From: Eubacteriaceae bacterium | Lineage (GTDB): Bacteria > Bacillota > Clostridia > Eubacteriales > Eubacteriaceae | Direction of reading: 5' to 3' | NCBI GenBank assembly: GCA_030156895.1 | Contig: JASGLP010000008.1 | Coordinates: 21,650-53,649, forward strand | Length of the DNA stretch: 32,000 nt | Shown here: positions 15,840-32,000 of the stretch, one piece after another | How positions within the stretch are numbered: the stretch's first letter is position 1 | Layout of the letters: every line of letters starts with the position of its first letter | Notes under the pieces: generated by a model | Database searches by the model: none | What the model saw: the letters and a program-made list of their open reading frames with translations, nothing else | Told to the model about the DNA's origin: nothing | Translations under genes and position numbers: made by a program

Positions 15840-15857
15840 TTACTCAACTTTCCCAGC
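15840..15857. repeat. IS terminal inverted repeat (transposase-distal end)
   Basis: TTACTCAACTTTCCCAGC, the exact reverse complement of 17341-17358. Confidence 0.85.
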
Positions 15858-17505: not shown

Positions 17506-18630
17506 CTAATTCAGACTGCTTTGAAAGGGAAAATCCGTCGCCCCAGGAGCCGCTGAATTTTTGGCAACAACAATAATCTGAATGCCTTCCAGCCTTAAAC
17601 CCATGCCTTCAGTTCCCGCATCGGCTCCGTTTTTAGCCCAGTCCAGCCAGCCGAAATTCTGGGCATGTACCCGGTAGTAAACATCATATAGATTTCCGTC
17701 CAGACCATCCAATTCAATGCGTATTCCTTCCAGGCGTAAAGATTGCCCCGTTGTCCCACTTAAAGCTCCATCGCTGACCATTGCCTGCCATCCAATATTT
17801 TGAATATGGGTCTGATACTGAATCACCGCATTGACCTCGCTGTTGTCAATTAGTATTTTAATCCCCTCAAGTCTGAGACCCTGACCAAATGTGCCACTGA
17901 TTTCGCCGTTTTCACGAGCTGTTTGCCAGCCCACATTCTGCACATGTGTTGAATAATAAACATCGACATAGGAAGGCGGCAAAGCCACAAAAGGCCGTGA
18001 ATTGGCATAGGCATAGCTTTCAGCTGTCGAACCCGTAGAGCCATAAATGGTTAAATTCGGAATTGTTCCAAAAACCTGGGCACCGATATTCACCGAATTG
18101 CCAAGAATTGTAATTTTTGTCAGCCCTATACAGTTGCTGAAAGCGGCATAACCAATCGTTGTCACACTCGATGGAATAATGATGCTTTTTAAAGCCTGTG
18201 CTCCCCAAAACGACCCATTTCCAATTGTAGTCAGCCCATTTCCCAGAAACACTGATTTAAGATTGGGACAATTATAAAAGGATCGCATTCCCAGATTTGT
18301 TACCGTCCTCGGTACATTTACACCCGTCAATATGCTGTTACCATTAAAGGCGTCGTTGCCAATTTCCAACACCGTTATACCATCAAGACTGGTCGGAATA
18401 TCGATATTTTTGCCGCTGCCGATGTAGGCTGTGATTTTTATTCCGCCACTGATATCTTCATACCAGTAATCACCGGACTGAACACTGTTGGCCGTAATCA
18501 AATTCAAATCGGCATTGCCAATCTTCGTGGTCTCCTGATGATCAATTTCTTGAGCTAATACAACTGACGATGAAAGCATTAAACAAACGCAAATTATAAC
18601 GTTTATCATCTGATTTTTTTTGCTTCTCAT
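17506..18630 (-). CDS. Secreted protein with BspA-type leucine-rich repeats and three C-terminal ChW repeats
   Basis: Signal peptide MRSKKNQMINVIICVCLMLSSSVVLAQE. LRR_5-like repeats (IGNDAFNGN..., MRSFYNCPNLKSV, IGYAAFSNC...). Three ~45-aa repeats follow, of the form Y.THVQN.GWQ...NG..SGT.GQ.LRLEGI.I. Confidence 0.8.
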   Translation of the reverse strand: MRSKKNQMINVIICVCLMLSSSVVLAQEIDHQETTKIGNADLNLITANSVQSGDYWYEDISGGIKITAYIGSGKNIDIPTSLDGITVLEIGNDAFNGNSILTGVNVPRTVTNLGMRSFYNCPNLKSVFLGNGLTTIGNGSFWGAQALKSIIIPSSVTTIGYAAFSNCIGLTKITILGNSVNIGAQVFGTIPNLTIYGSTGSTAESYAYANSRPFVALPPSYVDVYYSTHVQNVGWQTARENGEISGTFGQGLRLEGIKILIDNSEVNAVIQYQTHIQNIGWQAMVSDGALSGTTGQSLRLEGIRIELDGLDGNLYDVYYRVHAQNFGWLDWAKNGADAGTEGMGLRLEGIQIIVVAKNSAAPGATDFPFQSSLN

Positions 18631-19048: not shown

Positions 19049-19678
19049 TCAGCTTGCATTATATTTATTGCGGTATAAATGATAGAATTCTTCAACCTGA
19101 CGATCCAATATATCAAGAGCTTCTTTTTCCTCGGCAGATCGGCCATTATATTTACTAAGCAAAAAAAATATTGGAGCATAAAAATTCATCGCCATCGCCT
19201 TAGGGTCATGCGCAGAAAACGATCCCTGTCGAATCATTTCATTAAATAATTTAGCCTGATAAGCAATACTTTCTTCCATAAAAATATTTCGATAAATCTC
19301 ATAAATTTCCGGGTCAGAGTACTGCTCCATATTTGCTAAGCGCCAGAAACGAGAAATTAAGTCATCTTTTAAATAAAAGAGAAAAATCATTCGACTAAAA
19401 GCCTGAAGTTCCTCTAGTGACATATTTGCGTATTTTGAAGCGGCCTTTAAAAAATCATTTTCATCAGGCAGACCGATTTCAACTGACATTTCTGCCATCT
19501 TCTCGCGCATTCTTTCGACAATGGTATCAAAAATCTCTTTCTTGCTGGAAAAGTGCTTATATAAGGAACTATCCTTGATTCCCACTGCATCGGCAATTGC
19601 TTTTACCGTTGTTGCTTTAAAACCGTTAATCGAAAAAAGCGTTAACGCTTCATCGACAATTTTTTCTTTTGTTGTCAT
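19049..19678 (-). CDS. TetR/AcrR family transcriptional regulator
   Basis: N-terminal HTH KEKIVDEALTLFSINGFKATTVKAIADAVGIKDSSLYKHFSSKKEIF. Start overlaps the radical SAM stop (TAATG). Confidence 0.9.
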   Translation of the reverse strand: MTTKEKIVDEALTLFSINGFKATTVKAIADAVGIKDSSLYKHFSSKKEIFDTIVERMREKMAEMSVEIGLPDENDFLKAASKYANMSLEELQAFSRMIFLFYLKDDLISRFWRLANMEQYSDPEIYEIYRNIFMEESIAYQAKLFNEMIRQGSFSAHDPKAMAMNFYAPIFFLLSKYNGRSAEEKEALDILDRQVEEFYHLYRNKYNAS

Positions 19679-20775
19679 TAAACCGTCCTTTCAAGAAGCG
19701 CTTTCACTTCTGCTTCCTGCTCGAAAAGAACGCAGCCTCCAGTATGCTCTACTAATAAATTACCAGCGTTTTGCAATTTTAAAAACAGTGGTGATCGCAA
19801 TGCTTCTTTTAAAGAAGTATTCATCAGCGTAGTATCGGAGTATGGTGAAAAAGGGCAGGGTTCCGCCTCTCCATAGGGATTAATATGGAAAAATCCCCGG
19901 CCTGCAGCCAGACAACCACCTGATTCTTTTTCATCCCCAGGAAAAGCAATGAAAATCATCTCTTTTTCATGCTCTCGTATTTTATTGAGTTTTCTCTCAA
20001 AGATTGTCCTACTGTCATCATCAAATGCCAGGTTTTTACTACTTCCATCCACTGGCACATACTCCACATAGATCACTGCTTTACAACCTCGTTCTTTAAT
20101 TTCGTTAATAAATGCATCTGAAAACACTTCTTCAAGGTTTTTAGATGTAACCGTAACCGAGACGCCAAATATATTACCCCGATTTTTCAGCGATTTCATT
20201 GCTTCTTCAATCTTCCGATAAACACCGCTCCCCCTTCTCTGATCGGTTGTAACCATATTTCCTTCCATACTGATAAGGGGAACCAAATTAGGATTGACTG
20301 CTAGAAAATCAAGATATTGCTGATCTATCATTGTTCCGTTGGTAAAAACCGGAAACAGGATTCTTTTTTCTTTGGCCGCCACCGTCAGAATATCCTTGCG
20401 TACAAAAGGTTCTCCCCCAGCCAAAAGGACAAAGCTGATACCCAGATCAGCCGCCTGATTAAAAATGTTCTGCCACTGATCCACCGATAATTTCTTTTTC
20501 TCGTTTGCTTTATCATGACATTGCTGATTAGCTCTGGCATAACATCCGCTACAGTGAAGATTACAGTCTTCAGTAATACTGGCAATTAAAAATGGGGGGA
20601 TGTGTTCACCGCATAATTCCGCTTTCTGACGCAACTTCTCGGCATTCTGACTAATTTTAGCAAATTTCATCATAAAAAGGCTGGCCTGAGGATTTTTCAA
20701 TGTTGTTTTTAAGATCCCTTGAACAATTTCTCTGACTCCCTCGCTTAAATAGGCTTCCAAATTAAAGGTTGACAT
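19678..20775 (-). CDS. Radical SAM protein with twitch/partial-SPASM-like C-terminal Cys motif
   Basis: CNLHCSGCYA (Cx3Cx2C), GGEPF, and C-terminal GGCLAAGRGFFHINPYGEAEPC (C-x13-G-x4-C). I prefer ATG 20775 (GGAGG 6 nt upstream) over the ORF-track start at 20796. Confidence 0.85.
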   Translation of the reverse strand: MSTFNLEAYLSEGVREIVQGILKTTLKNPQASLFMMKFAKISQNAEKLRQKAELCGEHIPPFLIASITEDCNLHCSGCYARANQQCHDKANEKKKLSVDQWQNIFNQAADLGISFVLLAGGEPFVRKDILTVAAKEKRILFPVFTNGTMIDQQYLDFLAVNPNLVPLISMEGNMVTTDQRRGSGVYRKIEEAMKSLKNRGNIFGVSVTVTSKNLEEVFSDAFINEIKERGCKAVIYVEYVPVDGSSKNLAFDDDSRTIFERKLNKIREHEKEMIFIAFPGDEKESGGCLAAGRGFFHINPYGEAEPCPFSPYSDTTLMNTSLKEALRSPLFLKLQNAGNLLVEHTGGCVLFEQEAEVKALLERTV

Positions 20776-20816
20776 TTTTTCCTCCATATAAAGCAATACA
20801 TGCTTGACTTATAATT

Positions 20817-20923: not shown

Positions 20924-23293
20924 CTAATTCTGTCTCAAATCATAAAGTGTACCTGAGCTATTCATGCCACCACCCATATAAGCGTCTTGACTCATATCAG
21001 CCTGGCTGACATCAAACTCTGCTGTCTCCGAATGCGTCACATCTTCTTCTGATGCGTCATTGGTTTGCGTTTCTGAGTCTGGTAACTGATCCGTTGTCAC
21101 GATCGAATCCAATGCTGAACTATCAGACCAGAGACTTTGATCCACCGCGGTTCCATTCTCCTGAATCCAGCTCATAATATCGTTACCCATTTGACCTCCG
21201 CCACCTTGCCCGTCAATCAGCGCAAAACTAATTTCTCCATCTTCAACCATCTGAGCAAATTCATCTACCGTAAGAATACTGTCCGAACCAGAGAATCCAC
21301 CCAAAGCCATCACTGATTCTCCATAGTTGATAATAATTGATGATGCCGTCCCCGATGCCGAAGAAGTTGCCAGCAAATAGGTTTCATCCGTAGTGTTTTC
21401 TTTAAGATATGTCACCAGTTTATCAAGGCTTTCATCCTCAACATCGGATCCAGCAGCCCATGAACCGGAATCACTAGAAGTCATAAGACTTAAACCCGCC
21501 GATGGGAAAGTACCTGATTCCTTATAAAAAATCGTTGTCCCGGCATAAAATAGCGGTGTCAACGCCACCCCGGCAAAAGCAGTTAGTGCTATGGCAATAA
21601 TCCATTTCCGATGAGCTGCCACAAGCGCTTCCCGATTTTTATTAAGGGTTATCACCAGAAGCACTGCTGAGAAACCGATACTGAATACCCCAGTGGCAAT
21701 CATCAGGTAAAGGGCAATCTGAGAAGTATCCACAGCATAGTAAAGGAACAGCATCTGCACCAATCCGGTAACTGTTAAGGCAATTGGCAGGGCCAGGTTT
21801 TCTTTGCCCTCCCGCTGAAACATATCCCACATGGCCGAAAGGCCAATTCCTGTCAGAGCCGCAATCGGCGGGGCCAGCATAATCAGGTAATAGGGATGAA
21901 AGAGGCCAGTTGTAAAACTGAAATAGACAAAGACCGGAACTAGCCACAGAGTCCAGATTATCAGACTATGCTTTTTATTTTCATCGAAATCACTGATAAA
22001 CATTTTAAGGGAATATTTTTGTTTCTCTTCACCAATCACGGTCAGGCCTAAAATGTTCTTTTTGCGTTCATTCCACAGAGCAGCGCAAAGTCCCAGAAGT
22101 GCTAAAGGCAAGAACCAGCTGATCTGATCAGTCAGACCATTATCGGACAGGAGTCTTACAATACTGGCAGGCTTAGAGCCACCAAAATTGCTGTTACCAC
22201 CACCCATTCCGCCACCATTTTGACGTTCAGAATCGTCAGGCATTTCACCCATATCACCTGACATACCAGGTCCATTGCCAGCCTGACCAGAGAATTCCTC
22301 TTCTGTCATGGCGGATGAATTCTGATCATCTACCGATGTATCTGCAGCCGCTTCCGTGATTGCTGCATCATTGCTGTTGCTGTCGGTTGGCATTTGCGTA
22401 GAGCTGTCGGTACTTGTCCCATCCGTCGTCTGATCACCTGGCATAGCCATATCATCCGACATACCTTCAGGCATCTCCTGATCACCACCACCAGATGTTC
22501 CACTAGAACCAGTCAGACGTTCAATTCCGTTGTGTCCAAAAATAAGTTCCAGTTCACTGTTGTCGCTAGAACTTCCCACATAAGGTCGTTCCGATGCCGG
22601 TACCAGGTCTACAATCACCGCCCAGGACAGAGAAACCACCACCAGCACTACCGAAGCAATGGCCAGGTGAATAATTCGCTTTTTTAATGGGATAGCTTTG
22701 ATCAGGATATAAGCAACATAAATGGCCGGTGCAATCATATAAGCTTCCAGCATTTTAATATTAAAGCCCAGGCCGACAATGGCCAGACTGATAATCAAAT
22801 CCTTGAGTGACCCCTTTTCAGCTGCTTTCTGTAAAAAATACAGAGCAATTAAAAGGGTCATTACCAGAAGACCGTCCAGGGTGTTGTTTTTAGAAACTGC
22901 CACAAACATCGGCGTAATAGCCAAACAAAAGGCTGAAAGTAATCCAGCCAGTGGTCCAAATGGTTTTTTAACCAATAGATAGATGAACAGTACCGAGATC
23001 GCCCCAGCTAATGCCTGGGGAAACAAAATACTCCAACCACTATATCCGAATATTTTAGCCGAAATGGCCTGAATCATAAATCCCAGCGGCGGTTTGTCAA
23101 TGGTCACAAAGCCAGCCGGATCAAAAGACACAAAAAAGAAATTGCTTAGACTCATGGTCATACTCTTCACACCCGCAGCGTAATACTCGTTAGCATAACC
23201 CTGGATGCTTAAGTTTGCAAAATTCATAATCAGTGAAAACAGAACGATCAGTGAGATAGCAATTTTCTCTTTTGTCAATTTTAACTTTTCCAT
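20924..23293 (-). CDS. GT-C fold glycosyltransferase, family 39 (ArnT/PMT/YkcB-like), with large low-complexity loop insertion
   Basis: 789 aa, ~12 TM. The N-terminal region GYANEYYAAGVKSM...FFFVSFDPAGFVTIDKPPLG is typical of YkcB-type GT39 proteins. aa 261-373 are Met/Asp/Ser/Gly-rich. Confidence 0.85.
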   Translation of the reverse strand: MEKLKLTKEKIAISLIVLFSLIMNFANLSIQGYANEYYAAGVKSMTMSLSNFFFVSFDPAGFVTIDKPPLGFMIQAISAKIFGYSGWSILFPQALAGAISVLFIYLLVKKPFGPLAGLLSAFCLAITPMFVAVSKNNTLDGLLVMTLLIALYFLQKAAEKGSLKDLIISLAIVGLGFNIKMLEAYMIAPAIYVAYILIKAIPLKKRIIHLAIASVVLVVVSLSWAVIVDLVPASERPYVGSSSDNSELELIFGHNGIERLTGSSGTSGGGDQEMPEGMSDDMAMPGDQTTDGTSTDSSTQMPTDSNSNDAAITEAAADTSVDDQNSSAMTEEEFSGQAGNGPGMSGDMGEMPDDSERQNGGGMGGGNSNFGGSKPASIVRLLSDNGLTDQISWFLPLALLGLCAALWNERKKNILGLTVIGEEKQKYSLKMFISDFDENKKHSLIIWTLWLVPVFVYFSFTTGLFHPYYLIMLAPPIAALTGIGLSAMWDMFQREGKENLALPIALTVTGLVQMLFLYYAVDTSQIALYLMIATGVFSIGFSAVLLVITLNKNREALVAAHRKWIIAIALTAFAGVALTPLFYAGTTIFYKESGTFPSAGLSLMTSSDSGSWAAGSDVEDESLDKLVTYLKENTTDETYLLATSSASGTASSIIINYGESVMALGGFSGSDSILTVDEFAQMVEDGEISFALIDGQGGGGQMGNDIMSWIQENGTAVDQSLWSDSSALDSIVTTDQLPDSETQTNDASEEDVTHSETAEFDVSQADMSQDAYMGGGMNSSGTLYDLRQN

Positions 23294-23305
23294 AAATCTC
23301 CTATC

Positions 23306-24292
23306 TTAAATGGCCGTTTTTTTATTCAATTGCTCACTAAGCGTATATGTTTGAGCTTCACAGTGAATTTTTTCATCAATGACATAATTTGGGCGTTTTC
23401 GACTTTCATCGAGAATTCTAGAAATATATTGTCCCATAATCCCAAAAGCGGTATAAGTAATTCCAAACAGTATCATCATCATGATTGCTATCATCGTTAT
23501 ACCACTGAACTCAATGAAGCCCAGTCCTATACTGATCCCATCAGCAAGAAAAGCAATCAGACCGGCAGTCAGGATTACACCGCCAATCAAGGTAAAACAG
23601 GTAATTGGTTTAAACGAGAAGGATGTAATTCCGTCAAAAGCCAGCTTTATCATTTTTTTAAGCGTATACTTGGTTTCACCATCAAAGCGTTCCTGTCTGA
23701 CAAATTCCACTGCTGTCTGTTTGAAACCCAACCAACTGATCAATCCACGGACATAACGGTTTTTTTCCGGCAAAGCATTCAGAGCATCACAGACTTTTCG
23801 ATCAATGAGTCTAAAGTCTCCCGTATCCTTGGGAATTTCTACACTGGTCAAATGATCAAGAAATCGGTAAAAGGTTTTAGCCGTCAGCTTTTTAAAGAAC
23901 GATTCTCCTTCTCGTTTGCTTCTCTTGGCATATACAACATCATAGCCTTCTTTCCATTTTTCAATCATCGAAAGAATCAGCTCTGGCGGATCCTGCAAAT
24001 CCGCATCAATGACCACAATGGCATCCCCCTTTGCGGCTTCCATACCAGCAGTAATAGCCTGCTGATGGCCAAAATTTCTGGAAAAATTAATCAGCTCAAT
24101 CCGTGAATCTTTTCGGCAAAGCGCCTCTGCCATTTCTCTCGTCGCATCCTTGCTGCCATCATTAACCCAAACCAGCTCATAAGTTTCTCCTGTCTGGTCC
24201 ATTATAGCTGTTATACGTTTATACATCTCGTCAATAACCAGTTCCTCATTATATAGCGGAACTACAATCGAATAAACAGTGTGAGTTTTCAT
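23306..24292 (-). CDS. Family-2 polyprenyl-phosphate glycosyltransferase (GtrB/ArnC/CsbB/YkcC-like)
   Basis: YSIVVPLYNEE, VNDGSKD, VVIDADLQDPPE, and two C-terminal TM helices. I prefer ATG 24292 (AAAGGGG upstream) over 24334. Confidence 0.9.
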   Translation of the reverse strand: MKTHTVYSIVVPLYNEELVIDEMYKRITAIMDQTGETYELVWVNDGSKDATREMAEALCRKDSRIELINFSRNFGHQQAITAGMEAAKGDAIVVIDADLQDPPELILSMIEKWKEGYDVVYAKRSKREGESFFKKLTAKTFYRFLDHLTSVEIPKDTGDFRLIDRKVCDALNALPEKNRYVRGLISWLGFKQTAVEFVRQERFDGETKYTLKKMIKLAFDGITSFSFKPITCFTLIGGVILTAGLIAFLADGISIGLGFIEFSGITMIAIMMMILFGITYTAFGIMGQYISRILDESRKRPNYVIDEKIHCEAQTYTLSEQLNKKTAI

Positions 24293-24545
24293 TTTTAACC
24301 CCTTTCGAGAAATCTGAGAACTTTTCCAATTCATTTTTTGTTGAGATCATCATACCCCCAAATTGTAAAACGCGTATAAAGGCGGAGTGAACGTTATGTG
24401 AATATTGATTAAATCACCAATAATCTTTTGCGTTCGCACATGATTGTCTTTTTAAATAATAAAAGACATGTTAGAATATCATTATGTATCATCTCCACTG
24501 AAAAGTTTTGGTTAACCAGAAATATAAAAATCAAAGGAGCCTTTT

Positions 24546-24962
24546 ATGAACAAACCTAAAGTCGCCTTCATCTGCGTCCATAATTCCTGTCGCAGCCAGA
24601 TGGCTGAAGCCCTTGGCAAAAAATTTGCTGCCGACGTCTTTGAAAGCTATTCAGCCGGAACCGAAACCAAACCGCAGATTAATCAGGATGCGGTTCGTCT
24701 GATCAAAGAACGCTACAATATTGATATGGAAGCCAGTCAATATTCCAAACTCCTTGATGAACTGCCCCCAATCGATATTGTAATTAAGATGGGCTGCAAT
24801 GTGGTCTGTCCCTATTTACCGGCAAAACATACAGAAGATTGGGGGCTGGATGATCCAAGCGGAAAATCTGATCAGGAATTTGGCCTGATTATCGATGCAA
24901 TTGAAGCAAAGGTCAAAAAACTGGCTGATGATATAAAAAACAATATAATCAGCTTTTTATAA
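24546..24962 (+). CDS. arsC: Thioredoxin-coupled arsenate reductase (LMW-PTP family)
   Basis: KVAFICVHNSCRSQMAEA P-loop (Cys10/Cys15/Arg16) and the downstream Cys pair GCNVVCPYL, matching the three-Cys relay of Gram-positive ArsC. RBS AAAGGAG. Confidence 0.9.
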   Translation: MNKPKVAFICVHNSCRSQMAEALGKKFAADVFESYSAGTETKPQINQDAVRLIKERYNIDMEASQYSKLLDELPPIDIVIKMGCNVVCPYLPAKHTEDWGLDDPSGKSDQEFGLIIDAIEAKVKKLADDIKNNIISFL

Positions 24963-25099: not shown

Positions 25100-25639
25100 T
25101 TAAGTATCAAATTTTTCGGCGTCCTCATAAATCTTTTTGATTTCATCCTCTTTCATCACCGCCGAAAGAATATAGGCAATAATAATAATTCCGGGAATAT
25201 CAATAAATAGACGGGTAATCGCAAATTTTGTCCCCATAGATGCCATTTCAAATAAAAACATGGGGATTTTTGTGGTCGACCATGCTCCGATAAAGATCAT
25301 GATATTGCTGAATTTTACGCCCTTTTTCATAAAGACAGCGGCAATGGGAAACGCACCATATAAAGGTCCGGCGGCAGCTGAACCAATAAAAAAAGCCAGT
25401 AGAATCCCTTTCAGACCTGAACCGGGGCCCATATATTTCATCATCGTTTCTCTCGGTACCCAGACGTCCAAAAGCCCCAGCAGGACAAAAACCGGCGGGA
25501 TAATCATAATCATTTCTTTGATCGAATATCCGCTGATTCCGATCGCTTTTAAGCCCAGTTCCCGGTTAAAAAGGGTGATCAAAATCATAATTACAATGGC
25601 AATTAAAAATCCACGATAGCGTTTTAAAAACTTTTTCAT
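25100..25639 (-). CDS. Permease, DUF318/ArsP-family (COG0701-like), C-terminal-half subunit of a two-piece permease
   Basis: 179 aa, ~5 TM. 4-nt overlap with the upstream half-gene. The family call rests on my recollection of split SMU_746c/747c-type permeases and needs an HMM check. Confidence 0.6.
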   Translation of the reverse strand: MKKFLKRYRGFLIAIVIMILITLFNRELGLKAIGISGYSIKEMIMIIPPVFVLLGLLDVWVPRETMMKYMGPGSGLKGILLAFFIGSAAAGPLYGAFPIAAVFMKKGVKFSNIMIFIGAWSTTKIPMFLFEMASMGTKFAITRLFIDIPGIIIIAYILSAVMKEDEIKKIYEDAEKFDT

Positions 25640-26115
25640 AAACTCATCACCACCCCAATTACCAGTGCCACAACAAAGGAAAAGAGAAAGGCCAGAAAAT
25701 TGCGGGCAATCGCCAGCTTTTTCCCGAAATACTTCATCTCAACCGGCAGGGTTATGATCCCTACCATCATCAGAGCCGAGATAAAGGCCCCGATCTGCAT
25801 ATAACCGGCGCCCCCCTCTAATAATAAGGCTGTCATAGGAAAGGCTACAAAACCGGGAATCAGAGTAATAGAACCCGTAGCGGCTGCCAGGAACACTCCC
25901 AGCCAGCCCGATTTTTCACCGATGATATTAGAGATCACCTCTTCATTAATAACCGTCAATAATAAGCCAACCAGCAGAATCACCACCAGAAATTCCGGCA
26001 AGATATTTTCAAAGGCTTTCCAGGCCTTTTTTAAGGCCATTTTCGTCTTTTTTCGATCCTTGTAGAAAGAAACCAATAAAAGCAGGCCGGCAACTACATA
26101 TAAGGCTATATTCAT
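25636..26115 (-). CDS. Permease, DUF318/ArsP-family (COG0701-like), N-terminal-half subunit
   Basis: 159 aa, ~4 TM. N-terminus LLLVSFYKDRKKTKMALKKAWKAF and GSITLIPGFVAFPM resemble COG0701 permeases. RBS AAAGGAG. Confidence 0.6.
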   Translation of the reverse strand: MNIALYVVAGLLLLVSFYKDRKKTKMALKKAWKAFENILPEFLVVILLVGLLLTVINEEVISNIIGEKSGWLGVFLAAATGSITLIPGFVAFPMTALLLEGGAGYMQIGAFISALMMVGIITLPVEMKYFGKKLAIARNFLAFLFSFVVALVIGVVMSL

Positions 26116-26144: not shown

Positions 26145-27338
26145 TTACTGGCATTCTCCGTTTTTCTCGAGCATCTCTTTCTGACGGCTTGCTTCAAACT
26201 GGGAAATAAAAAAGGCTGCTACCATACTGACCAGAAAAAGAATCACGGCGGAGTTTAAATAGATGGTCGACAAGTTTCCCGAATCAATCACCACAGCATT
26301 AACACTGGTACCTATCGCACCACCGACAAACATGTTAAATGAAGCCAATGACATGGCCGTTCCCCGGCGCTTTGATAATTTCTCCTGAACAGTGGTAATA
26401 AGTGTTGACTGGAGGAATATAAATGCCACCCCATAGCCAAATAAAGCCAAAGACAAGAACCAAACGTTGCTTGAAAAAGCCAGGCCCAAAAGGGATATTC
26501 CTCCGATGACACCAGCAGATACCAGAAATCTGCCTTTTAATTTCTTTCTTAAAACCGGAGCGATCCGCCCTCCGATGACTGTCCCAACCCCAAATAGGGA
26601 AAGAATGGCTCCCACAATAAACAGGTTATAACCAGTTACTGTTTGAATTAATTTACCAGTGTAAGTAAAGCCTCCAAAAACGCTGAAACCGACAAAGAAA
26701 ATCGTCAACACCAGTTTCATAAAAGAAAAATCTGAAAGGGGTTCCTTATAGGCTTCTATCAGATGAAAGTGATCAACCACGGGCTGATCTCTTTCAAGAA
26801 TTTTAAACATGATCAGGGCAACTACCAGCTCGGCAATCCCATAAGCCAGATAAACCAACCGCCAGGAACCTAAATAAGCCAAAGTCCCCCCAATAATGGT
26901 CGCCATTGCTCCGCCCATAAACATCAGCCCCATGACCTTGCCAATGGCTTTCTGCCGATGCTGAGGTTCAAAACTCTGGCCAACAAAAGCCAGTGTAACC
27001 GGGAAAATACCGGCACCGAAGGCGCCATTCATGGCACGAAAGAAAATCAATGAGGGCAGATTAAAGGAAAAAGCACCCAAGATACTAAAAATTGCCGTTC
27101 CCATGGCTGCTATATTAATAATCTTAACCTTGCCGAAGCGATCAGAAAGCGGGCCAAAAATCAATGTAAATGCTCCAAAAGCCAGCATATAAGCAGTAAC
27201 CGACATGGCCGCCACACTGACTGTGATATTTAAATCTGCAGCGATATTAATAATCAGCGGTGCCGCTGCATAGTTATCGCCATTAGCTAAAAATGCCATC
27301 AAACCAAGGATAGCAATCATTCTGTTTTTATTTTCCAT
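26145..27338 (-). CDS. MFS transporter (DHA-type)
   Basis: ~12 TM; GPLSDRFGK loop motif. I prefer ATG 27338 (MENKNRMIAILG), 1 nt after the ferredoxin stop. The ORF-track start at 27416 would overlap the ferredoxin gene by 77 nt. Confidence 0.85.
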   Translation of the reverse strand: MENKNRMIAILGLMAFLANGDNYAAAPLIINIAADLNITVSVAAMSVTAYMLAFGAFTLIFGPLSDRFGKVKIINIAAMGTAIFSILGAFSFNLPSLIFFRAMNGAFGAGIFPVTLAFVGQSFEPQHRQKAIGKVMGLMFMGGAMATIIGGTLAYLGSWRLVYLAYGIAELVVALIMFKILERDQPVVDHFHLIEAYKEPLSDFSFMKLVLTIFFVGFSVFGGFTYTGKLIQTVTGYNLFIVGAILSLFGVGTVIGGRIAPVLRKKLKGRFLVSAGVIGGISLLGLAFSSNVWFLSLALFGYGVAFIFLQSTLITTVQEKLSKRRGTAMSLASFNMFVGGAIGTSVNAVVIDSGNLSTIYLNSAVILFLVSMVAAFFISQFEASRQKEMLEKNGECQ

Positions 27339-27339
27339 T

Positions 27340-27546
27340 TTAGATATTTGTATCTCCATAATACTGAATCGCATCCGCTGGACACAGGTTACCACAACCA
27401 TGACAACCGTCAACACAACCGTCTGTATAAATCACAATCGGTTTTTGACTTGATTTGTCATAAACCCCATGAGTACATTTTTCTACGCATGATCCACATT
27501 CAACACAACTTTCTTCATTAATCATTGGATACCAATTTTTAGCCAT
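27340..27546 (-). CDS. Small atypical 2x[4Fe-4S] ferredoxin-like protein
   Basis: 68 aa: NWYPMINEESCVECGSCVEKCTHGVY (CxxCxxCxxxC) and CVDGCHGCGNLCP (Cx3Cx2Cx3CP). RBS AAGAGG. Paralog of 29367..29672. Confidence 0.85.
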   Translation of the reverse strand: MAKNWYPMINEESCVECGSCVEKCTHGVYDKSSQKPIVIYTDGCVDGCHGCGNLCPADAIQYYGDTNI

Positions 27547-27747: not shown

Positions 27748-28143
27748 TTAAAGTGAATCGTATATTTTCAGTATTTCAGCGCTCACCTGATCTACCATTT
27801 TTTGATGATGCTCGGTCAAATTTCTGGTAGATAGCGGGGCATCCAGTGCCAACTCTTTCCCAATTATTGCTTCAATGTCGATGCTGCCGGATACTTCCGC
27901 ACTAAATTTTTCAATCGCCCGTTTAGCACAGCATTTTGAACAGCCATCCACTGAAATAGTCGGATAATTTTTAGCAAACTCCCGTTCTCCGCCATCACCA
28001 GCAATAAACAAGGGCAAACACAGGGTAGTGGTCACGCCTGGGCGATCTTTTTCCATTATTTTCCGGACTGCCAGTCGGGAGATGGTACCGCCCAGACATT
28101 CTTCTCCACTGCAGGCAACAACGCCGATTTTCTTTTCTGCCAT
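27748..28143 (-). CDS. DGC (Cys4, putative metal-binding) domain protein
   Basis: 131 aa with the four family cysteines in ACSG, LCLP, VDGC and CCA. Start overlaps the upstream stop (TAATG). Confidence 0.75.
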   Translation of the reverse strand: MAEKKIGVVACSGEECLGGTISRLAVRKIMEKDRPGVTTTLCLPLFIAGDGGEREFAKNYPTISVDGCSKCCAKRAIEKFSAEVSGSIDIEAIIGKELALDAPLSTRNLTEHHQKMVDQVSAEILKIYDSL

Positions 28144-28541
28144 TAGACTTCCCCCCTCAGTTCATTGACCATTTCAACCATTTTATCGGCCAGCTCTTCA
28201 GCATAATTCCAGCCGTCTTCAGTTAAAGCAGTCGCCGTTCCATGATCTTCACCTCGATGGGCCCGCATAAAATCTGCCACCTTATAGCTTTTGGCAACCT
28301 GACCGCCAGCCGCTTCCACACTTTTTAAGGCACACTGTTTGGGACAGCCATCCATGGTGATGCAGGCTTGACCTTTAATCCGATTGATCACGTCATCATC
28401 GCCAGTAACCAGCTGGGCCAGACACAGAGTTTCCGTTTGATCAGGACATTTATCCTGGGTCACCATCAGCACAGATTCCCGCGCCAGCAAGCCTAAAACT
28501 TTTCCAATCCCAGAGCAGGGTAAAACTTTTACTTTAGACAT
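28143..28541 (-). CDS. DGC (Cys4, putative metal-binding) domain protein
   Basis: 132 aa with PCSG, LCLA, MDGC and QCA. 8-nt overlap with the upstream gene. Confidence 0.75.
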   Translation of the reverse strand: MSKVKVLPCSGIGKVLGLLARESVLMVTQDKCPDQTETLCLAQLVTGDDDVINRIKGQACITMDGCPKQCALKSVEAAGGQVAKSYKVADFMRAHRGEDHGTATALTEDGWNYAEELADKMVEMVNELRGEV

Positions 28542-29370
28542 CTTGGGCCACCTTCTTTTTCAGATATTCAAAATAGGATGATCCATCGTGAAGAATTTCC
28601 AGATCTTCCGTAACTTCATCCGTTAAAGCGATCTCAACCAGCCAGCCTCTTTCGTAAGGCGATTCATTGATCCATTCCGGTGAGTCCTGAAGTGCTTCAT
28701 TAACCGCTGTCACCCTTCCTGATACCGGGGCAATGATTTCAAAAACGGCCTTACCCGATTCGATGCTGCCGCAGTCATCAAACTGCTCAATTTCATCATC
28801 AATTTCAGGGGGATCATAATAAAGAATATCCGAAAGATTCTGCTGCACATAATCGCTGACGCCAATTCGAGCCGAATTTCCCGAGACATAAACCCAACAG
28901 TCATTCTCATTAAAAAAGAAGCCTTGCTTTGGTACTTTAAAAACAAACTTTCCTTCCATAAAGGAATCATAGTCTATGGTGGTCATTTCAAAAGTTGACG
29001 CTTCTTTTTTATCTTCGGTTTGAGTCAATTTTTCAACCAGGGCTTTCTGCACCGCTTTTGTCGTTTCATTAACCGCTAAATCTTTGCCCAGTTTTAAATC
29101 CATGGACTTGGCTACGTCACTGACATTGTACTTGTCTTTAATCTTCAGATCAAGACTCTGTGCCAGTTTGCTGGCACATCGTGTATTACAGCCGTCAATG
29201 ACGACCAGGTCGCCCTGAGCAAGTATCTTTTCGTAAGGGCTTTTATTCTGATTTAAGAGTACCGGACAAATCAGCTCAAAATCATCCTGCTGACTTAGTT
29301 CAACTGCAGCCTGGCCTGAGACCAGGCCGGCACATTTGTCCAGTCCGTTACAGGGTAATAAACATTTCAT
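28534..29370 (-). CDS. Fusion protein: N-terminal DGC domain + C-terminal glycine-cleavage H-protein-like (lipoyl/swinging-arm) domain
   Basis: N-terminus has PCNG, ICPV, IDGC and RCA. The C-terminus CWVYVSGNSARIGVSDYVQQNLSDILYYDPPEIDDEIEQFDDCGSIESGKAVFEIIAPVSGRVTAVNEALQDSPEWINESPYERGWLVEI is collinear with GcvH and has a Lys at the ESVK lipoylation position. ATGA overlap with the upstream ferredoxin gene. Confidence 0.8.
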   Translation of the reverse strand: MKCLLPCNGLDKCAGLVSGQAAVELSQQDDFELICPVLLNQNKSPYEKILAQGDLVVIDGCNTRCASKLAQSLDLKIKDKYNVSDVAKSMDLKLGKDLAVNETTKAVQKALVEKLTQTEDKKEASTFEMTTIDYDSFMEGKFVFKVPKQGFFFNENDCWVYVSGNSARIGVSDYVQQNLSDILYYDPPEIDDEIEQFDDCGSIESGKAVFEIIAPVSGRVTAVNEALQDSPEWINESPYERGWLVEIALTDEVTEDLEILHDGSSYFEYLKKKVAQDV

Positions 29371-29672
29371 TCGCCCGCCTCTTTCTTGGCTTTCTCTGCT
29401 TTGCGGGTAGCCTTGATTTTCTTGGTTGTTTCGGTTTTATCCGGAAAAGAAAGCGCATCCAAACCACAAGTCTTAGAACAAGCCCGGCAAAAGACTACAC
29501 AATTGTTAGGGTTTTTCACAATCAGTTTTGGTGTCTGATCTTCTCTCACCTCAAAGACCTGATGGGGACAAAATTCCACGCAATCCATACAATCATTGCA
29601 TTTTGAATAATCAATGGTCGGGCACCAGTCAATTTTCTCCCGGTCAACACCCATAAAAGTTGATTCACTCAT
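29367..29672 (-). CDS. Atypical 2x[4Fe-4S] ferredoxin-like protein with Lys-rich C-terminal tail
   Basis: 101 aa: WCPTIDYSKCNDCMDCVEFCPHQVF and CVVFCRACSKTCG, then KKIKATRKAEKAKKEAGE. RBS GAGGTG. Paralog of 27340..27546. Confidence 0.85.
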   Translation of the reverse strand: MSESTFMGVDREKIDWCPTIDYSKCNDCMDCVEFCPHQVFEVREDQTPKLIVKNPNNCVVFCRACSKTCGLDALSFPDKTETTKKIKATRKAEKAKKEAGE

Positions 29673-29674
29673 AG

Positions 29675-30046
29675 CTACACCTCATATCCCATCTCTTCAA
29701 GCTTTTCTTCCACTTTCTCGAAGGCTTCCTCATTGGTCATATCGCGAATATCCAGCATCACTGCAGCTTCCATTATATCAAGTCCCGCTTCTTTAAAAGC
29801 ATCCTTGAACATTTTTTTCTGCATATTAGGCGCGCAGGCACCAATAATCACTTTGCGGTGACTCTTTAAAAAATCGGCCAAAAAGCGGTCGCCATCTTCC
29901 TCGCACAGTTGGGGATGGATAAAAGCATATTCAACCGGCAGCTCCACTCTCACCTGATTAATAAAGTCCCATATATCCATGGCCTGAAAGCCTGGACATT
30001 TCCCAGTACAGACACACATTAAAAAACCTGGTAATTCCTGACTCAT
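29675..30046 (-). CDS. Small 5-Cys protein, possibly MvhD/FlpD-like Fe-S protein (function unknown)
   Basis: Cys pattern FLMCVCTGKCP ... HPQLCEEDG ... VIIGACAP. Its layout resembles the [2Fe-2S] MvhD fold only by eye. I prefer ATG 30046 (GAGGTG 6 nt upstream) over the GTG at 30055. Confidence 0.6.
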   Translation of the reverse strand: MSQELPGFLMCVCTGKCPGFQAMDIWDFINQVRVELPVEYAFIHPQLCEEDGDRFLADFLKSHRKVIIGACAPNMQKKMFKDAFKEAGLDIMEAAVMLDIRDMTNEEAFEKVEEKLEEMGYEV

Positions 30047-30086
30047 ATCATTCACCTCTTTATTATTTAATTATTTGCTTATGGAT

Positions 30087-30161: not shown

Positions 30162-31178
30162 TTAAGGACAGCGAATAAAGTTTCTGACCCAGAGACAGTC
30201 CCCGCATGAAGGTGTATTAAAATAGCAATCATACTTTGTATCTTCCACCAGTGAGCATCCCCCTCGCAGATCACAATCGACACATGAAGGATACTGGTTG
30301 TTGTAAATCGTCTGCCAGAAATCCTGATAAGCCTTGCCTTCAATAATCTCCTTTAAAGGCTTTTCTTTGACATTTCCGAAAGAATGCTTAATAACCCGTT
30401 TCTTTTCGCCAAAAACAAACTCATTATAGGTGTTTGCCAATCGATAACAGGAAATCACCTCACCGCCGGCATCAATATAGATATAACCCTTATCAATGAA
30501 ATCGCAGCGACGCTCGGTTTTTAATTCCATATCCGGCATATTGACCTTAATATCCCGATTGGAAAACATCCGGTCACGAAACTTCTTCCCTTCCACATTT
30601 TCATAACGGGTATAAAAGATCTCATCTTCATCATCTTTGGACAGCGGCATCAGGTGTGATAAATTAAGCCGATGAAAACCATAATGCCGCATCATGTCAA
30701 GAATTTCAAACAGAGCTTCATGATTGCTTTTAGTCAGAACATAGGCAATGCCTGTTTTAGGCGTTGAAGACCGGGTTCTCCGATGATAGTCGGCAAAATA
30801 TTGAAAGGTTTTAAGCAGCTGATCTTTTAGTCCCTGCGTTTCTTCGTGATACTGATCGGCGGAAAAAAAGACCGCACCAAAATTTTCACAAAGAATCCTG
30901 GCCGTTTCCTCCGGCATAATGCCGTTGCTGGTGATCAAAAGTCGATACTCTTTAAAAAGGTCTACCGCTTCTTTAAAATACGGATAGATGGTTGGCTCAC
31001 CAATGCCACCAAAAAAAATCTCTTTAACCGTCTTGATTTCTGAAATCTGTTCTTTGAGCGACTTAAGCAGCTCAAAATCCATATCTCCTTCAACCGTTTC
31101 CCAACTGTGTCTGAAACACATCTCGCAATCCAGATTGCAACGGTTGGTCAGTTCGATATACACGCGTTTTAATTCCAT
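30162..31178 (-). CDS. Radical SAM enzyme with C-terminal SPASM domain plus an extra CxxCx8CP tail
   Basis: TNRCNLDCEMCF (Cx3Cx2C), GGIGEP. SPASM pattern C-x13-G-x4-C (CDFIDKGYIYIDAGGEVISC), then CVDCDLRGGC...C. Terminal CGDCLWVRNFIRCP. Confidence 0.85.
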   Translation of the reverse strand: MELKRVYIELTNRCNLDCEMCFRHSWETVEGDMDFELLKSLKEQISEIKTVKEIFFGGIGEPTIYPYFKEAVDLFKEYRLLITSNGIMPEETARILCENFGAVFFSADQYHEETQGLKDQLLKTFQYFADYHRRTRSSTPKTGIAYVLTKSNHEALFEILDMMRHYGFHRLNLSHLMPLSKDDEDEIFYTRYENVEGKKFRDRMFSNRDIKVNMPDMELKTERRCDFIDKGYIYIDAGGEVISCYRLANTYNEFVFGEKKRVIKHSFGNVKEKPLKEIIEGKAYQDFWQTIYNNQYPSCVDCDLRGGCSLVEDTKYDCYFNTPSCGDCLWVRNFIRCP

Positions 31179-31590: not shown

Positions 31591-32000
31591 ATGAGTATTT
31601 ACCTGGATAATGCCGCAACGTCCTTTCCCAAGCCTTTGTCCGTTCCTCAAGCCGTCTATGATTACATGGTCAACAACGGCGGAACCTCAGGCCGGGGCGC
31701 CTATGAAAAAGCCATTATTGCCGATGGTCTTGTCTACCGGACTCGAAAACTGCTGGCTCAGCTCTTTAACCATCCTGATCCCAAAACCATCGTCTTTACC
31801 TCATCTGTTACCGAGTCGCTTAATATGGCCCTACAGGGACTGTTACAGGCCGGTGATCATGTTGTCACCAGTTCCCTTGAACATAACGCCGTCTGGCGAT
31901 GTTTAAAAACCCTTGAACGGGATCGGCAGATTTCTATTACGACAGTTCCGGCCAATCAGAATGGCGAAACGAATTTGTCCGATGTTGAAGCCGCCCTTAC
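31591..32000 (+). CDS. Class-V aminotransferase-fold PLP enzyme, cysteine desulfurase/selenocysteine lyase-like (C-terminus off window)
   Basis: Missing from the ORF track (open at the edge). My translation reads MSIYLDNAATSFPKPLSVPQAVYDYMVNNGGTSGRGAYEKAIIADGLVYRTRKLLAQLFNHPDPKTIVFTSSVTESLNMALQGLLQAGDHVVTSSLEHNAV... RBS AAGGAG 6 nt upstream. Confidence 0.85.
   Translation, partial: MSIYLDNAATSFPKPLSVPQAVYDYMVNNGGTSGRGAYEKAIIADGLVYRTRKLLAQLFNHPDPKTIVFTSSVTESLNMALQGLLQAGDHVVTSSLEHNAVWRCLKTLERDRQISITTVPANQNGETNLSDVEAAL

Follow-up and report, generated by a model that had tools for sequence, protein, structure and literature searches.

What does a lipoyl-carrier domain do when it is tethered to a four-cysteine domain and encoded away from the glycine cleavage genes? 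This question is raised by one gene in a 32,000-nucleotide stretch from a Eubacteriaceae bacterium (GenBank assembly GCA_030156895.1, contig JASGLP010000008.1, positions 21,650 to 53,649; hereafter the window), whose product joins a DGC domain to a domain resembling GcvH, the H-protein of the glycine cleavage system. The fusion, here called DGC~GcvH, belongs to a widespread family mis-named GcvH, is part of a five-gene module, and lies in an arsenic-resistance context; all of this goes beyond an earlier note on the same DNA, made from the sequence alone. We propose, giving the idea about an even chance, that DGC~GcvH may be the lipoyl-carrier subunit of an arsenic-responsive thiol/iron-sulfur capture-and-hand-off relay encoded in a conserved operon. 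With the family's arsenic context, an architecture that could formerly not be assigned to any function becomes a specific, testable hypothesis.

The gene (28534..29370, minus strand) starts with ATG and encodes 278 amino acids (aa). Profile searches detected both halves above the Pfam cut-offs, i.e. DGC (PF08859) on aa 4-96 (29083..29361; E = 8.4e-18, 64.8 bits against a cut-off of 27) and GCV_H (PF01597) on aa 154-272 (28555..28911; E = 4e-31, 107.9 bits against a cut-off of 22.2, covering profile positions 4-121 of 122). Among sequences of the PDB, phmmer matched the C-terminal half to the H-proteins of E. coli, Thermus, cattle, human, and pea (E = 5e-22 to 5e-17), with aa 152-270 aligned to E. 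coli H-protein 3a8i at E = 5e-22. In that alignment, the query IESGKAVFEIIAPVSG stands opposite AESVKAASDIYAPVSG, and the segment IESGK207AVFEIIAPVSG falls on AESVKAASDIYAPVSG; Lys207 (codon 28750..28752), the predicted lipoylation site, is therefore placed in the lipoyl-lysine column. Lys207, the D59-G60-C61 motif, and the four cysteines Cys7 (codon 29350-29352), Cys35 (29266-29268), Cys61 (29188-29190), and Cys65 (29176-29178) were invariant in alignments of 22 and 72 homologues, and Cys13 of the DGC domain was near-invariant among the 72. The fusion of a DGC domain to an H-protein domain is thus confirmed far beyond chance. The earlier note had located the reading frame exactly, and its three further claims about the protein, that the last ~125 aa resemble GcvH, that the lipoate-carrying lysine is retained, and that four conserved DGC cysteines are present, are all borne out.

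The structure prediction that the note had suggested agrees with this picture. An AlphaFold2 model based on 72 sequences (mean predicted local distance difference test, pLDDT, of 91.1) consists of two folded domains, and its C-terminal half superposes on solved H-proteins (Foldseek; template-modelling (TM) score 0.91-0.94, root-mean-square deviation 0.9-1.4 A, 31-36% identity). Lys207 sits at a hairpin tip in the model, on the turn joining strands 199-205 and 209-213 of the H-protein barrel. The N-terminal domain is modelled as a small parallel alpha/beta fold of predicted flavodoxin-like type, with strands at residues 2-6, 31-33, 54-59, and 77-82 and helices between them. According to the predicted secondary structure, the invariant cysteines are placed at or just past the C-terminal ends of strands 1-3, and in the predicted fold they would cluster in space. 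In such alpha/beta folds, the C-terminal edge of the sheet is the usual location of cofactor sites. In the model, a helix begins between the two cysteines of the Cys61-x3-Cys65 pair, as in thioredoxin. Candidate roles for the four-cysteine site include binding of Zn, as presumed in the database annotation, of an Fe-S cluster, or of As(III), as well as the formation of redox disulfides. The linker is modelled as a helix (102-116) that leads into a stretch of lower confidence (about 117-133), after which comes a conserved extra beta-hairpin (134-147).

The fusion is not confined to this genome. Among 5.8 billion proteins searched, we found more than 120 full-length proteins that combine DGC with GCV_H (49-100% identity), from hosts such as Acetobacterium, Eubacterium callanderi, Thermoanaerobacter kivui, Dialister, Caloramator, Clostridium, Sedimentibacter, Fusibacter sp. 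3D3, and Lacrimispora. Their database names are "glycine cleavage system protein GcvH" or "putative zinc-binding protein", and NCBI and JGI label the family GcvH. A scan of one genome per GTDB species gave 244 encoding stretches, and the search for further fusions proposed in the earlier note thereby led to about 244 species genomes from multiple phyla. The best 80 of these 244 belong to Clostridia, Negativicutes, Bacteroidota (Bacteroidales, Prolixibacteraceae, and Lentimicrobiaceae), and one metagenome-assembled genome of Acidobacteriota; all are anaerobes. The fusion also occurs in Desulfosporosinus and Syntrophomonas, and many hosts are acetogens. Among 72,556 PLSDB plasmids, only ordinary gcvH matches and no full-length fusion were found. 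Mobile-element genes lie near the module in E. callanderi (conjugation genes PrgI, TraG-like ATPase, and CHAP lysozyme; L004 1-4800), and transposases in T. kivui (DDE_Tnp_1; L003 10948-12423) and in the window (DDE_5, 475 aa; 15844-17271). Two copies of the module are present in E. callanderi FD (L025 and L050) and in Lacrimispora sp. 38-1 (L035 and L038). These double copies and the nearby mobile-element genes suggest that the module spread horizontally within arsenic islands.

In the full text of open-access papers and bioRxiv, including the Fusibacter 3D3 arsenate work and the Paraclostridium EML work, we found no description of a DGC~GcvH system, in keeping with the earlier note's statement that the architecture has no described function. 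The sole mention of PF08859 in this literature concerns the Pseudodesulfovibrio mercurii arsR-arsP-arsE operon, which includes a stand-alone DGC gene of unknown function (bioRxiv 10.1101/2022.10.17.512643).

In the window, the fusion gene belongs to an operon with the order radical SAM/SPASM, p126, ferredoxin 1, DGC~GcvH, DGC-A, DGC-B, ferredoxin 2, MFS, and split ArsP, all on the minus strand. The operon genes carry Shine-Dalgarno-like sequences, and in most cases the stop codon of one gene overlaps the start codon of the next, which supports translational coupling. p126 (29675..30055), an HdrA-N-domain-like Fe-S protein without a Pfam match, probably starts at the ATG at 30046, giving 123 aa. 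It is followed by ferredoxin 1 (29367..29672; 101 aa, Pfam Fer4 families), which has two [4Fe-4S] motifs and weak HgcB-like matches in NCBIfam and whose stop overlaps the start of DGC~GcvH by 4 nt. Two stand-alone DGC proteins come next: DGC-A (28143..28541; 132 aa, Pfam DGC 5e-14), whose start overlaps the DGC~GcvH stop by 8 nt, and DGC-B (27748..28143; 131 aa, Pfam DGC 4e-18), which shares a TAATG overlap with DGC-A. The remaining operon genes encode a radical SAM/SPASM protein assigned by Pfam (30162..31178), which is the first gene of the operon in this genome and TIGR04317-like (332 bits against a cut-off of 380), ferredoxin 2 (27340..27546; 68 aa, Pfam), a transporter of the MFS (26145..27338; Pfam MFS_1, 397 aa from the ATG at 27338), and an ArsP-type permease (25100..26115) split into two open reading frames (ORFs) of 159 aa (25636-26115) and 179 aa (25100-25639) that overlap by 4 nt, with a Pfam ArsP_1 match on each. 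As a start for the MFS gene, the mechanical ORF list gives a GTG at 27416, which overlaps ferredoxin 2; the database gene call and the sequence favour the ATG at 27338, which abuts the ferredoxin 2 stop.

The gene neighbourhood was surveyed in the best 80 of the 244 GTDB-species loci with our own crude ORF calls and blastp clusters, whose representatives were annotated; kinship was ignored. An anchored subset comprises the 75 loci with a cleanly called anchor gene. The core of p126, ferredoxin, DGC~GcvH, and two DGC proteins was present in all six contexts inspected, i.e. A. woodii, T. kivui, E. callanderi, Fusibacter 3D3, the window's own species, and its relative ES3. Across the 80 loci, we found p126 (69 loci), an ArsR (HTH_5; 64), a ferredoxin of ~97 aa (57), the stand-alone DGC pair (54), and a class-I pyridine-nucleotide disulfide oxidoreductase that is a dihydrolipoyl dehydrogenase (Lpd; 48 loci; TIGR01350, 527 bits against a cut-off of 409); in 34 loci, the Lpd gene is at most 2.6 kb upstream and shares the strand. 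The lipoate-protein ligase LplA (TIGR00545, 435 bits against a cut-off of 280) is encoded directly downstream in 19. Arsenic-related neighbours include Acr3 (21 loci), an ArsE-type thioredoxin (TIGR00412; 20), ArsA (18), ArsC (17), split ArsP (16), full-length ArsP (15), ArsD (15), the ArsF family (NF040494; 12), and an ArsM-like methyltransferase (10). DsbD/CcdA (23 loci), a membrane-anchored thioredoxin (18), a cysteine desulfurase (TIGR01977; 18), a PF04060 protein (17), the orthologous MFS cluster (14), radical SAM/SPASM (10), and a ferredoxin 3' of the module (about 8) also recur, as do, more rarely, DUF2703 (7 loci; also adjoining ArsR in E. callanderi L004), rhodanese (7), and a putative redox protein of the C_GCAxxG_C_C family (5), all three small and cysteine-containing. 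The recurrence of this split ArsP pair in 16 of the 80 loci indicates a conserved two-piece permease, judged from sequence, and not a frameshifted pseudogene.

The canonical gene order is ArsR-Lpd-p126-ferredoxin-DGC~GcvH-DGC_A-DGC_B-LplA, which may be followed by ferredoxin, thioredoxin, and DsbD; in Bacteroidota, it is ArsR-ArsE-ArsF-DsbD-p126-ferredoxin-DGC~GcvH-DGC-DGC. An ArsR lies within 10 kb in 60 of the 75 anchored loci, at least one ars-family gene in 47 of the 75 (and in 39 of the 54 loci of at least 15 kb), and Acr3, ArsA, ArsD, ArsC, or ArsM in 34 of the 75. Because ars operons fill only of the order of 0.1-1% of a genome, the ars enrichment around the module, counted from crude ORF calls and with kinship ignored, is very large. 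A glycine-cleavage context was rejected: the 32-kb window contains no gcvP, gcvT, lpd, lplA, lipA, or lipB, and there was no gcvT, gcvP, or lipL-type gene among the recurrent neighbours of the 80 loci. The earlier note had reported that neither glycine cleavage P/T/L genes nor a lipoate ligase or synthase occur nearby; this holds for the window and fails for the family, where Lpd accompanies the fusion in most relatives and LplA in many.

Several features of individual loci were noted. LplA (18 loci) and the PF04060 Fe-S protein (16 loci) never occurred together in the 75 anchored loci (Fisher p = 0.008, phylogenetically uncorrected), and in most of its 16 loci the PF04060 protein was accompanied by the cysteine desulfurase. 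In Eubacteriaceae, including the window, this pair is joined by the radical SAM/SPASM protein, which scores just under the cut-off for TIGR04317, 'tungsten cofactor oxidoreductase maturase'. The desulfurase/PF04060/radical SAM set might provide an alternative cofactor maturation for the H-domain, or be a mere lineage signal. In A. woodii (L001 6649-8964), the module is directly preceded by genes for a glutamate-cysteine ligase and an ATP-grasp protein, possibly a pair for low-molecular-weight thiol synthesis, and followed within 10 kb by XdhC, ArsR, ArsD, MFS, CDF, a further DGC gene, and YeeE/YedE-type transporters.

Which signal would the operon respond to? We aligned 25 ArsRs encoded on the same strand at most 3.5 kb upstream of the module. 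Most carry ELCVC, EMCVC, EKCAC, or ELCAC, the upstream ArsRs of Bacteroidota have a (K)CC(Y/T)SG motif, and the ArsR of this genome, encoded just outside the window, reads ...DKPQCVCEL.... In R773 ArsR, the motifs align with ELCVCDLC, its established site for As(III)/Sb(III). Their position argues for linked ArsRs that would sense arsenite/antimonite, and not for the type with an alpha-5 metal site or the persulfide-sensor type. The 412-bp divergent intergenic region upstream of the window operon, in which an ArsR operator was sought, contained only short AT-rich palindromes, with promoter and terminator scans at background, and no Rfam element, including a riboswitch in the operon leader, was found in the window.

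The partner proteins add to the singularity of the module. For p126, NCBIfam gave only a weak HdrA match over aa 5-95, and neither NCBIfam nor Pfam has a model for the protein. A p126 profile matched the N-terminal [4Fe-4S] domain of HdrA (7bkb, E = 0.001; also 9sfi and 5odc) with the CxC...C...C ligands aligned. The protein, with the signature MCVCTGKCPGF...HPQLCEEDGDRF...GACAPN, has five invariant cysteines and a mean column identity of 80% between Bacillota and Bacteroidota, compared with ~50% for the fusion (alignment A2). This extreme conservation suggests that p126 may have a catalytic or hub role, more than that of a simple electron carrier. Its database labels are "hypothetical" and "HdrA-like polyferredoxin"; in A. 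woodii, it is encoded by Awo_c22580.

DGC-A and DGC-B are paralogues (hhalign 99.4%), and a natural DGC-A~DGC-B fusion (P0361) suggests that they act as a pair. DGC-B orthologues of several species (L037, L041, L051, L057, L059, L060, and L063) end in Cys/Gly-rich tails: GCGCGCGCGC, GGCCCGS..C, GCSCGE, and GGCGCGCGPK. Longer DGC proteins (P0363-P0411) have a CxC motif after the domain and then an unannotated conserved domain of ~70 aa, and two DGC proteins (P0374 and P0411) are fused to an ArsE-type thioredoxin (PF13192). The whole DGC family is small, as only 530 of 1.84 billion representative clusters match it (E <= 1e-3). An AlphaFold2 model of DGC-B (pLDDT 91.8) had no significant Foldseek neighbour in the PDB (best E = 0.04, only generic flavodoxin-like folds, such as SIS, lumazine synthase, and low-molecular-weight (LMW) protein tyrosine phosphatase), and the DGC sequence profile had no match there either; with neither search matching, the DGC fold is structurally uncharacterised. 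Two possible origins of the domain were considered. Kinship with LMW phosphatase/ArsC was rejected, with a generic flavodoxin-like fold as the only likeness (Foldseek E >=0.065 and TM <=0.46; hhalign of DGC-B with ArsC 0.7%). Descent from an HdrA-N/MvhD-type Fe-S domain was rejected at the sequence level: the cysteine topology looks alike by eye, but hhalign of p126 with DGC gave 0.7%.

How could such a module act? Trivalent arsenicals bind vicinal dithiols, most of all that of the dihydrolipoyl group, and organo-As(III) having two free valences binds especially well; as far as is known, anaerobes mostly lack glutathione. In the proposed relay, an As(III)-sensing ArsR would control expression of the operon, and Lys207 would be lipoylated by the LplA encoded in relatives' operons, or by a ligase encoded elsewhere in this genome. 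The lipoyl disulfide would be reduced to the dithiol by the operon-encoded Lpd with NADH, by reduced ferredoxin through ferredoxin and p126, or by both. The dihydrolipoyl arm of ~14 A would then be a protein-bound dithiol, a built-in analogue of dimercaprol, and could capture trivalent arsenicals (As(III), methyl-As(III), or aryl-As(III)) in a sacrificial or trafficking role. The cysteine centres of DGC-A, DGC-B, and the fusion's own DGC domain may exchange the arsenical, or disulfide bonds, with the arm, and these Cys-rich DGC proteins would pass the arsenical on for export by ArsP, MFS, Acr3, or ArsA. With Lpd or ferredoxin keeping the relay reduced, the net effect would be to keep arsenic off essential dithiols. 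The arsenic reading draws on the As(III)-site cysteines of the linked ArsRs, the neighbouring ars genes, the Cys-rich DGC tails, the CxC motif of longer DGC proteins, the fusions of DGC to ArsE-type thioredoxin, and the DGC gene in the ars operon of P. mercurii; the frequent proximity of ArsP, ArsE, ArsF, and ArsM hints that organoarsenicals matter for the module.

Several points weigh against this proposal. Three-coordinate As(III) suits four invariant cysteines less well than a tetrahedral Zn site or an Fe-S cluster would, and the strictly conserved ferredoxin/p126 chain suggests real electron-transfer catalysis, more than chaperoning. About a third of the loci have no recognisable ars gene within 10 kb, partly owing to short contigs, and CDF and MFS transporters are also found among the neighbours. 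ArsR-family regulators sense other metals and sulfane sulfur, too. The window itself lacks Lpd and LplA, with no Lpd within 10 kb on the source contig, and the neighbourhood statistics come from crude ORF calls and clustering without correction for phylogeny. The four cysteines and the conserved Fe-S chain leave room for Fe-S clusters and redox catalysis, and we therefore keep a sizeable, though tentative, place for a complex in which the lipoylated H-domain, with its own Lpd, LplA, and ferredoxin/HdrA-like/DGC partners, would bind and chemically process trivalent (organo)arsenicals, with lipoate as a working part, DGC as a new As-handling family, and p126 as the catalytic Fe-S core. In such processing, pentavalent or organo-arsenicals could possibly be reduced with electrons from ferredoxin or NADH, or C-As bonds could be cleaved without oxygen. 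No enzyme for oxygen-independent C-As cleavage is known to us, and the literature searched yielded none; ArsI, the sole C-As lyase known to us, needs O2.

The redox partners also fit a pure electron relay that never carries arsenic. Serving as a thioredoxin substitute, the lipoyl arm would be reduced by NADH/Lpd or by ferredoxin, p126, and the DGC centres, and would itself reduce ArsC, ArsM, ArsE/ArsF, thioredoxin-DsbD, or As(V)/organo-As(V). In its favour are the redox nature of Lpd, ferredoxin, and the HdrA-like p126, the fusions of DGC to ArsE-type thioredoxin (P0374 and P0411), the genes for thioredoxin and DsbD that follow the module (in 18 and 23 of the 80 loci), the modelled position of the C61-x3-C65 pair at a helix start as in thioredoxin, and the precedents of the Lpd-DlaT-AhpD-AhpC relay and the lipoyl-dependent Ohr peroxidase. 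This reading is the main alternative, but we consider it somewhat doubtful: it leaves three DGC copies with Cys-rich tails and CxC motifs unexplained, no acceptor co-occurs obligatorily (ArsC in 17 and ArsM in 10 of the 80 loci), and a low-potential ferredoxin is unnecessary for As(V) reduction. If, on the other hand, the ars genes were merely frequent neighbours in resistance islands, the module might answer to another soft metal(loid), with Sb, Hg, Cd, and Te as candidates, or to general thiol stress, including that from reactive electrophiles. The recurrence of CDF cation-efflux, MFS, and MarR genes, the HgcB-like proteins among the best weak matches of ferredoxin 1, and the roughly one third of loci without recognisable ars genes within 10 kb would suit such a role. 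The dominant neighbours are, however, arsenic-specific (Acr3, ArsA, ArsD, ArsC, ArsM, ArsP, ArsE, and ArsF), no mer genes were seen among the neighbours, and the cysteines of the linked ArsRs form a motif of the As(III)/Sb(III) type instead of an alpha-5 metal site or a persulfide sensor, which makes this explanation unlikely.

Sulfur is a further candidate cargo. The co-occurrence of a GcvH-like carrier, an HdrA-like fragment, a ferredoxin, and an ArsR-family regulator recalls the sHdr-LbpA type of sulfane-sulfur trafficking or oxidation, and here the arm would carry persulfide sulfur from a cysteine desulfurase, possibly to form thioarsenicals, under a sulfane-sulfur-sensing ArsR-type repressor. 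The TIGR01977 desulfurase and the PF04060 protein adjoin the module in 16-18 loci, including this genome, rhodanese is encoded in 7 loci, YeeE/YedE genes lie near the A. woodii copy, and sHdrR-type ArsR repressors are known (PMC12423496). We rate this possibility as quite improbable, given that CCG-domain HdrB, HdrC, DsrE, and TusA were absent from the recurrent neighbours of the 80 loci, that the ligase is a canonical LplA and not of the sLpl(AB)/LipS type, that the ArsR cysteines lie at the As(III) site, and that all hosts are strict anaerobes and not sulfur oxidisers. Least credible of all is a housekeeping H-protein with a decorative, zinc-ribbon-like N-terminal domain, acting in acetogen glycine cleavage/synthase or as a lipoyl-relay donor as GcvH does in Bacillus and Staphylococcus. 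The NCBI and JGI label, scores just under the GcvH cut-offs (116 against 117 and 106.7 against 115.85), and the many acetogens among the hosts would agree with it, yet gcvT, gcvP, and lipL-type genes are absent from the window and from the recurrent neighbours, the gene is embedded in a p126-ferredoxin-DGC module with ArsR, and the family extends to Bacteroidales, Desulfosporosinus, and Syntrophomonas.

Other genes of the window complete the setting. Convergent with the operon, ArsC, an arsenate reductase of the LMW-phosphatase type, is encoded on the plus strand (24546..24962; Pfam LMWPc; present in 17 loci); its cluster representative scored 135 bits against TIGR02691 (arsC_pI258), under the cut-off of 174.3. 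On the other side, and divergent from the operon, lies the 5' part of a cysteine desulfurase gene (31591..32000, plus strand; Pfam Aminotran_5), which continues beyond the window into an operon with a PF04060 Fe-S protein, a 90-aa ORF, and ArsR on the source contig. A TetR regulator gene overlaps with a further radical SAM gene (Radical_SAM + Fer4_12, 372 aa; 19049-20796 for both, minus strand); in the relative ES3, this pair directly adjoins the ars cluster (L009 15012-16726), and in the window a GT2 glycosyltransferase and a PMT_2/YkcB-type mannosyltransferase (20924-24334) separate the pair from the ars genes. Three cyclic di-GMP (c-di-GMP) signalling proteins are encoded within 14 kb on the minus strand (2474-4018, 6472-8016, and 13743-15782; dCache-GGDEF, 7TM-GGDEF, and GGDEF-EAL), and a ChW-repeat/LRR surface protein at 17506-18630; these are typical features of Clostridia and unrelated to DGC~GcvH.

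Arsenic poisoning is classically explained by inhibition of dihydrolipoyl enzymes and classically treated with dithiol drugs, dimercaprol among them. If the proposed relay exists, about 240 anaerobe species with an ArsR-linked operon would build their own lipoylated dithiol arm, served by a ligase and a reductase of its own, beside arsenic exporters, which would be a new branch of arsenic biology. It would provide a first function for the DGC domain (PF08859) and for an HdrA-N-like Fe-S protein with 80% identity between phyla, and a third job for non-canonical H-proteins, after sHdr-LbpA and GcvH-L. It would also correct the systematic mis-annotation "glycine cleavage protein GcvH", a label liable to mislead the metabolic reconstruction of acetogens, in which glycine-synthase routes are sought, and would give a lead on how glutathione-free anaerobes of gut, sediment, and industry (Acetobacterium, Eubacterium limosum/callanderi, Clostridium ljungdahlii, Thermoanaerobacter kivui, and Bacteroidales) handle inorganic and organic arsenicals. 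Several hosts are genetically tractable, which makes the hypothesis directly testable.

How does DGC~GcvH compare with known systems? Like GcvH itself (PF01597/TIGR00527) from E. coli, Thermus, cattle, and human, its C-terminal 125 aa have the full H-protein fold with the lipoyl-lysine hairpin conserved. It differs in the N-terminal DGC domain and the extra beta-hairpin at aa 134-147, in scores under the NCBIfam cut-offs (TIGR00527, 106.7 against 115.85; NF002270, 116 against 117), and in having Fe-S and DGC proteins with ArsR as operon partners in place of an association with gcvT/gcvP. Because it fails both the equivalog cut-offs and the gcvT/P association, DGC~GcvH should not be filed as a glycine-cleavage H-protein.

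The earlier note had named LbpA and GcvH-L as known paralogues that are not fused to DGC, and this distinction stands. LbpA of sHdr sulfur oxidation (PMC6067878) is likewise a GcvH paralogue outside glycine cleavage, with a swinging dithiol arm in an Hdr-related cluster, and a dedicated lipoate ligase and an ArsR-family regulator occur in both systems. In contrast to LbpA, the carrier described here is fused to DGC, has anaerobic hosts and ars neighbours, and is accompanied only by a stand-alone HdrA-N-like protein, without recurrent HdrB/C CCG subunits, DsrE, or TusA. The ligase differs, too, being a canonical LplA above the TIGR00545 cut-off (130 against 550 for the LplAB model), and the radical SAM protein of the window is a TIGR04317-like SPASM protein, unlike LipS1/LipS2. 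GcvH-L, from the SirTM/macrodomain operon of Streptococcus and Staphylococcus (PDB 5a35), shares the character of a stress-linked, non-canonical H-protein paralogue with its own lipoate ligase. It is not a DGC fusion, matches DGC~GcvH much more weakly (22% identity, E = 2.6e-7, compared with about 1e-14 for true GcvH), and has sirtuin and macrodomain partners, which were found neither in the window nor in the annotated neighbour clusters of the 80 loci.

The ArsD/ArsA metallochaperone pathway for As(III) offers a different comparison. There, too, small Cys-rich proteins of ars operons would take up As(III) and hand it to an exporter, and the DGC-B tails recall the vicinal Cys pairs of ArsD. 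However, ArsD has no sequence or fold kinship to DGC and lacks a prosthetic group, reductase, ligase, and Fe-S partners, and ArsD/ArsA often co-occur with the module and are not replaced by it. As for the HdrA N-terminal [4Fe-4S] domain and the MvhD type (PDB 7bkb and 5odc), p126 aligns over ~87 residues including the CxC...C...C ligands, but it is a stand-alone protein of 123 aa with a fifth invariant cysteine and is far more conserved than an ordinary ferredoxin. Judged from these sequence comparisons, the DGC and p126 partners have no characterised relative.

In the Lpd-DlaT-AhpD-AhpC system of M. tuberculosis and in lipoyl-dependent Ohr, electrons pass from NADH through Lpd and a dihydrolipoyl arm to a Cys acceptor that detoxifies a stressor. 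The logic proposed here is the same, with Lpd encoded together with the carrier in 48 of the 80 loci and none within 10 kb on the source contig. It differs in having DGC proteins with four cysteines as acceptors, an added ferredoxin/HdrA-like input, and a context that points to arsenic, not peroxide, as the stressor. Although it fails the defining gene associations of each of these systems, DGC~GcvH would by analogy work like the non-canonical lipoyl carriers and the lipoyl-dependent detoxification relays.

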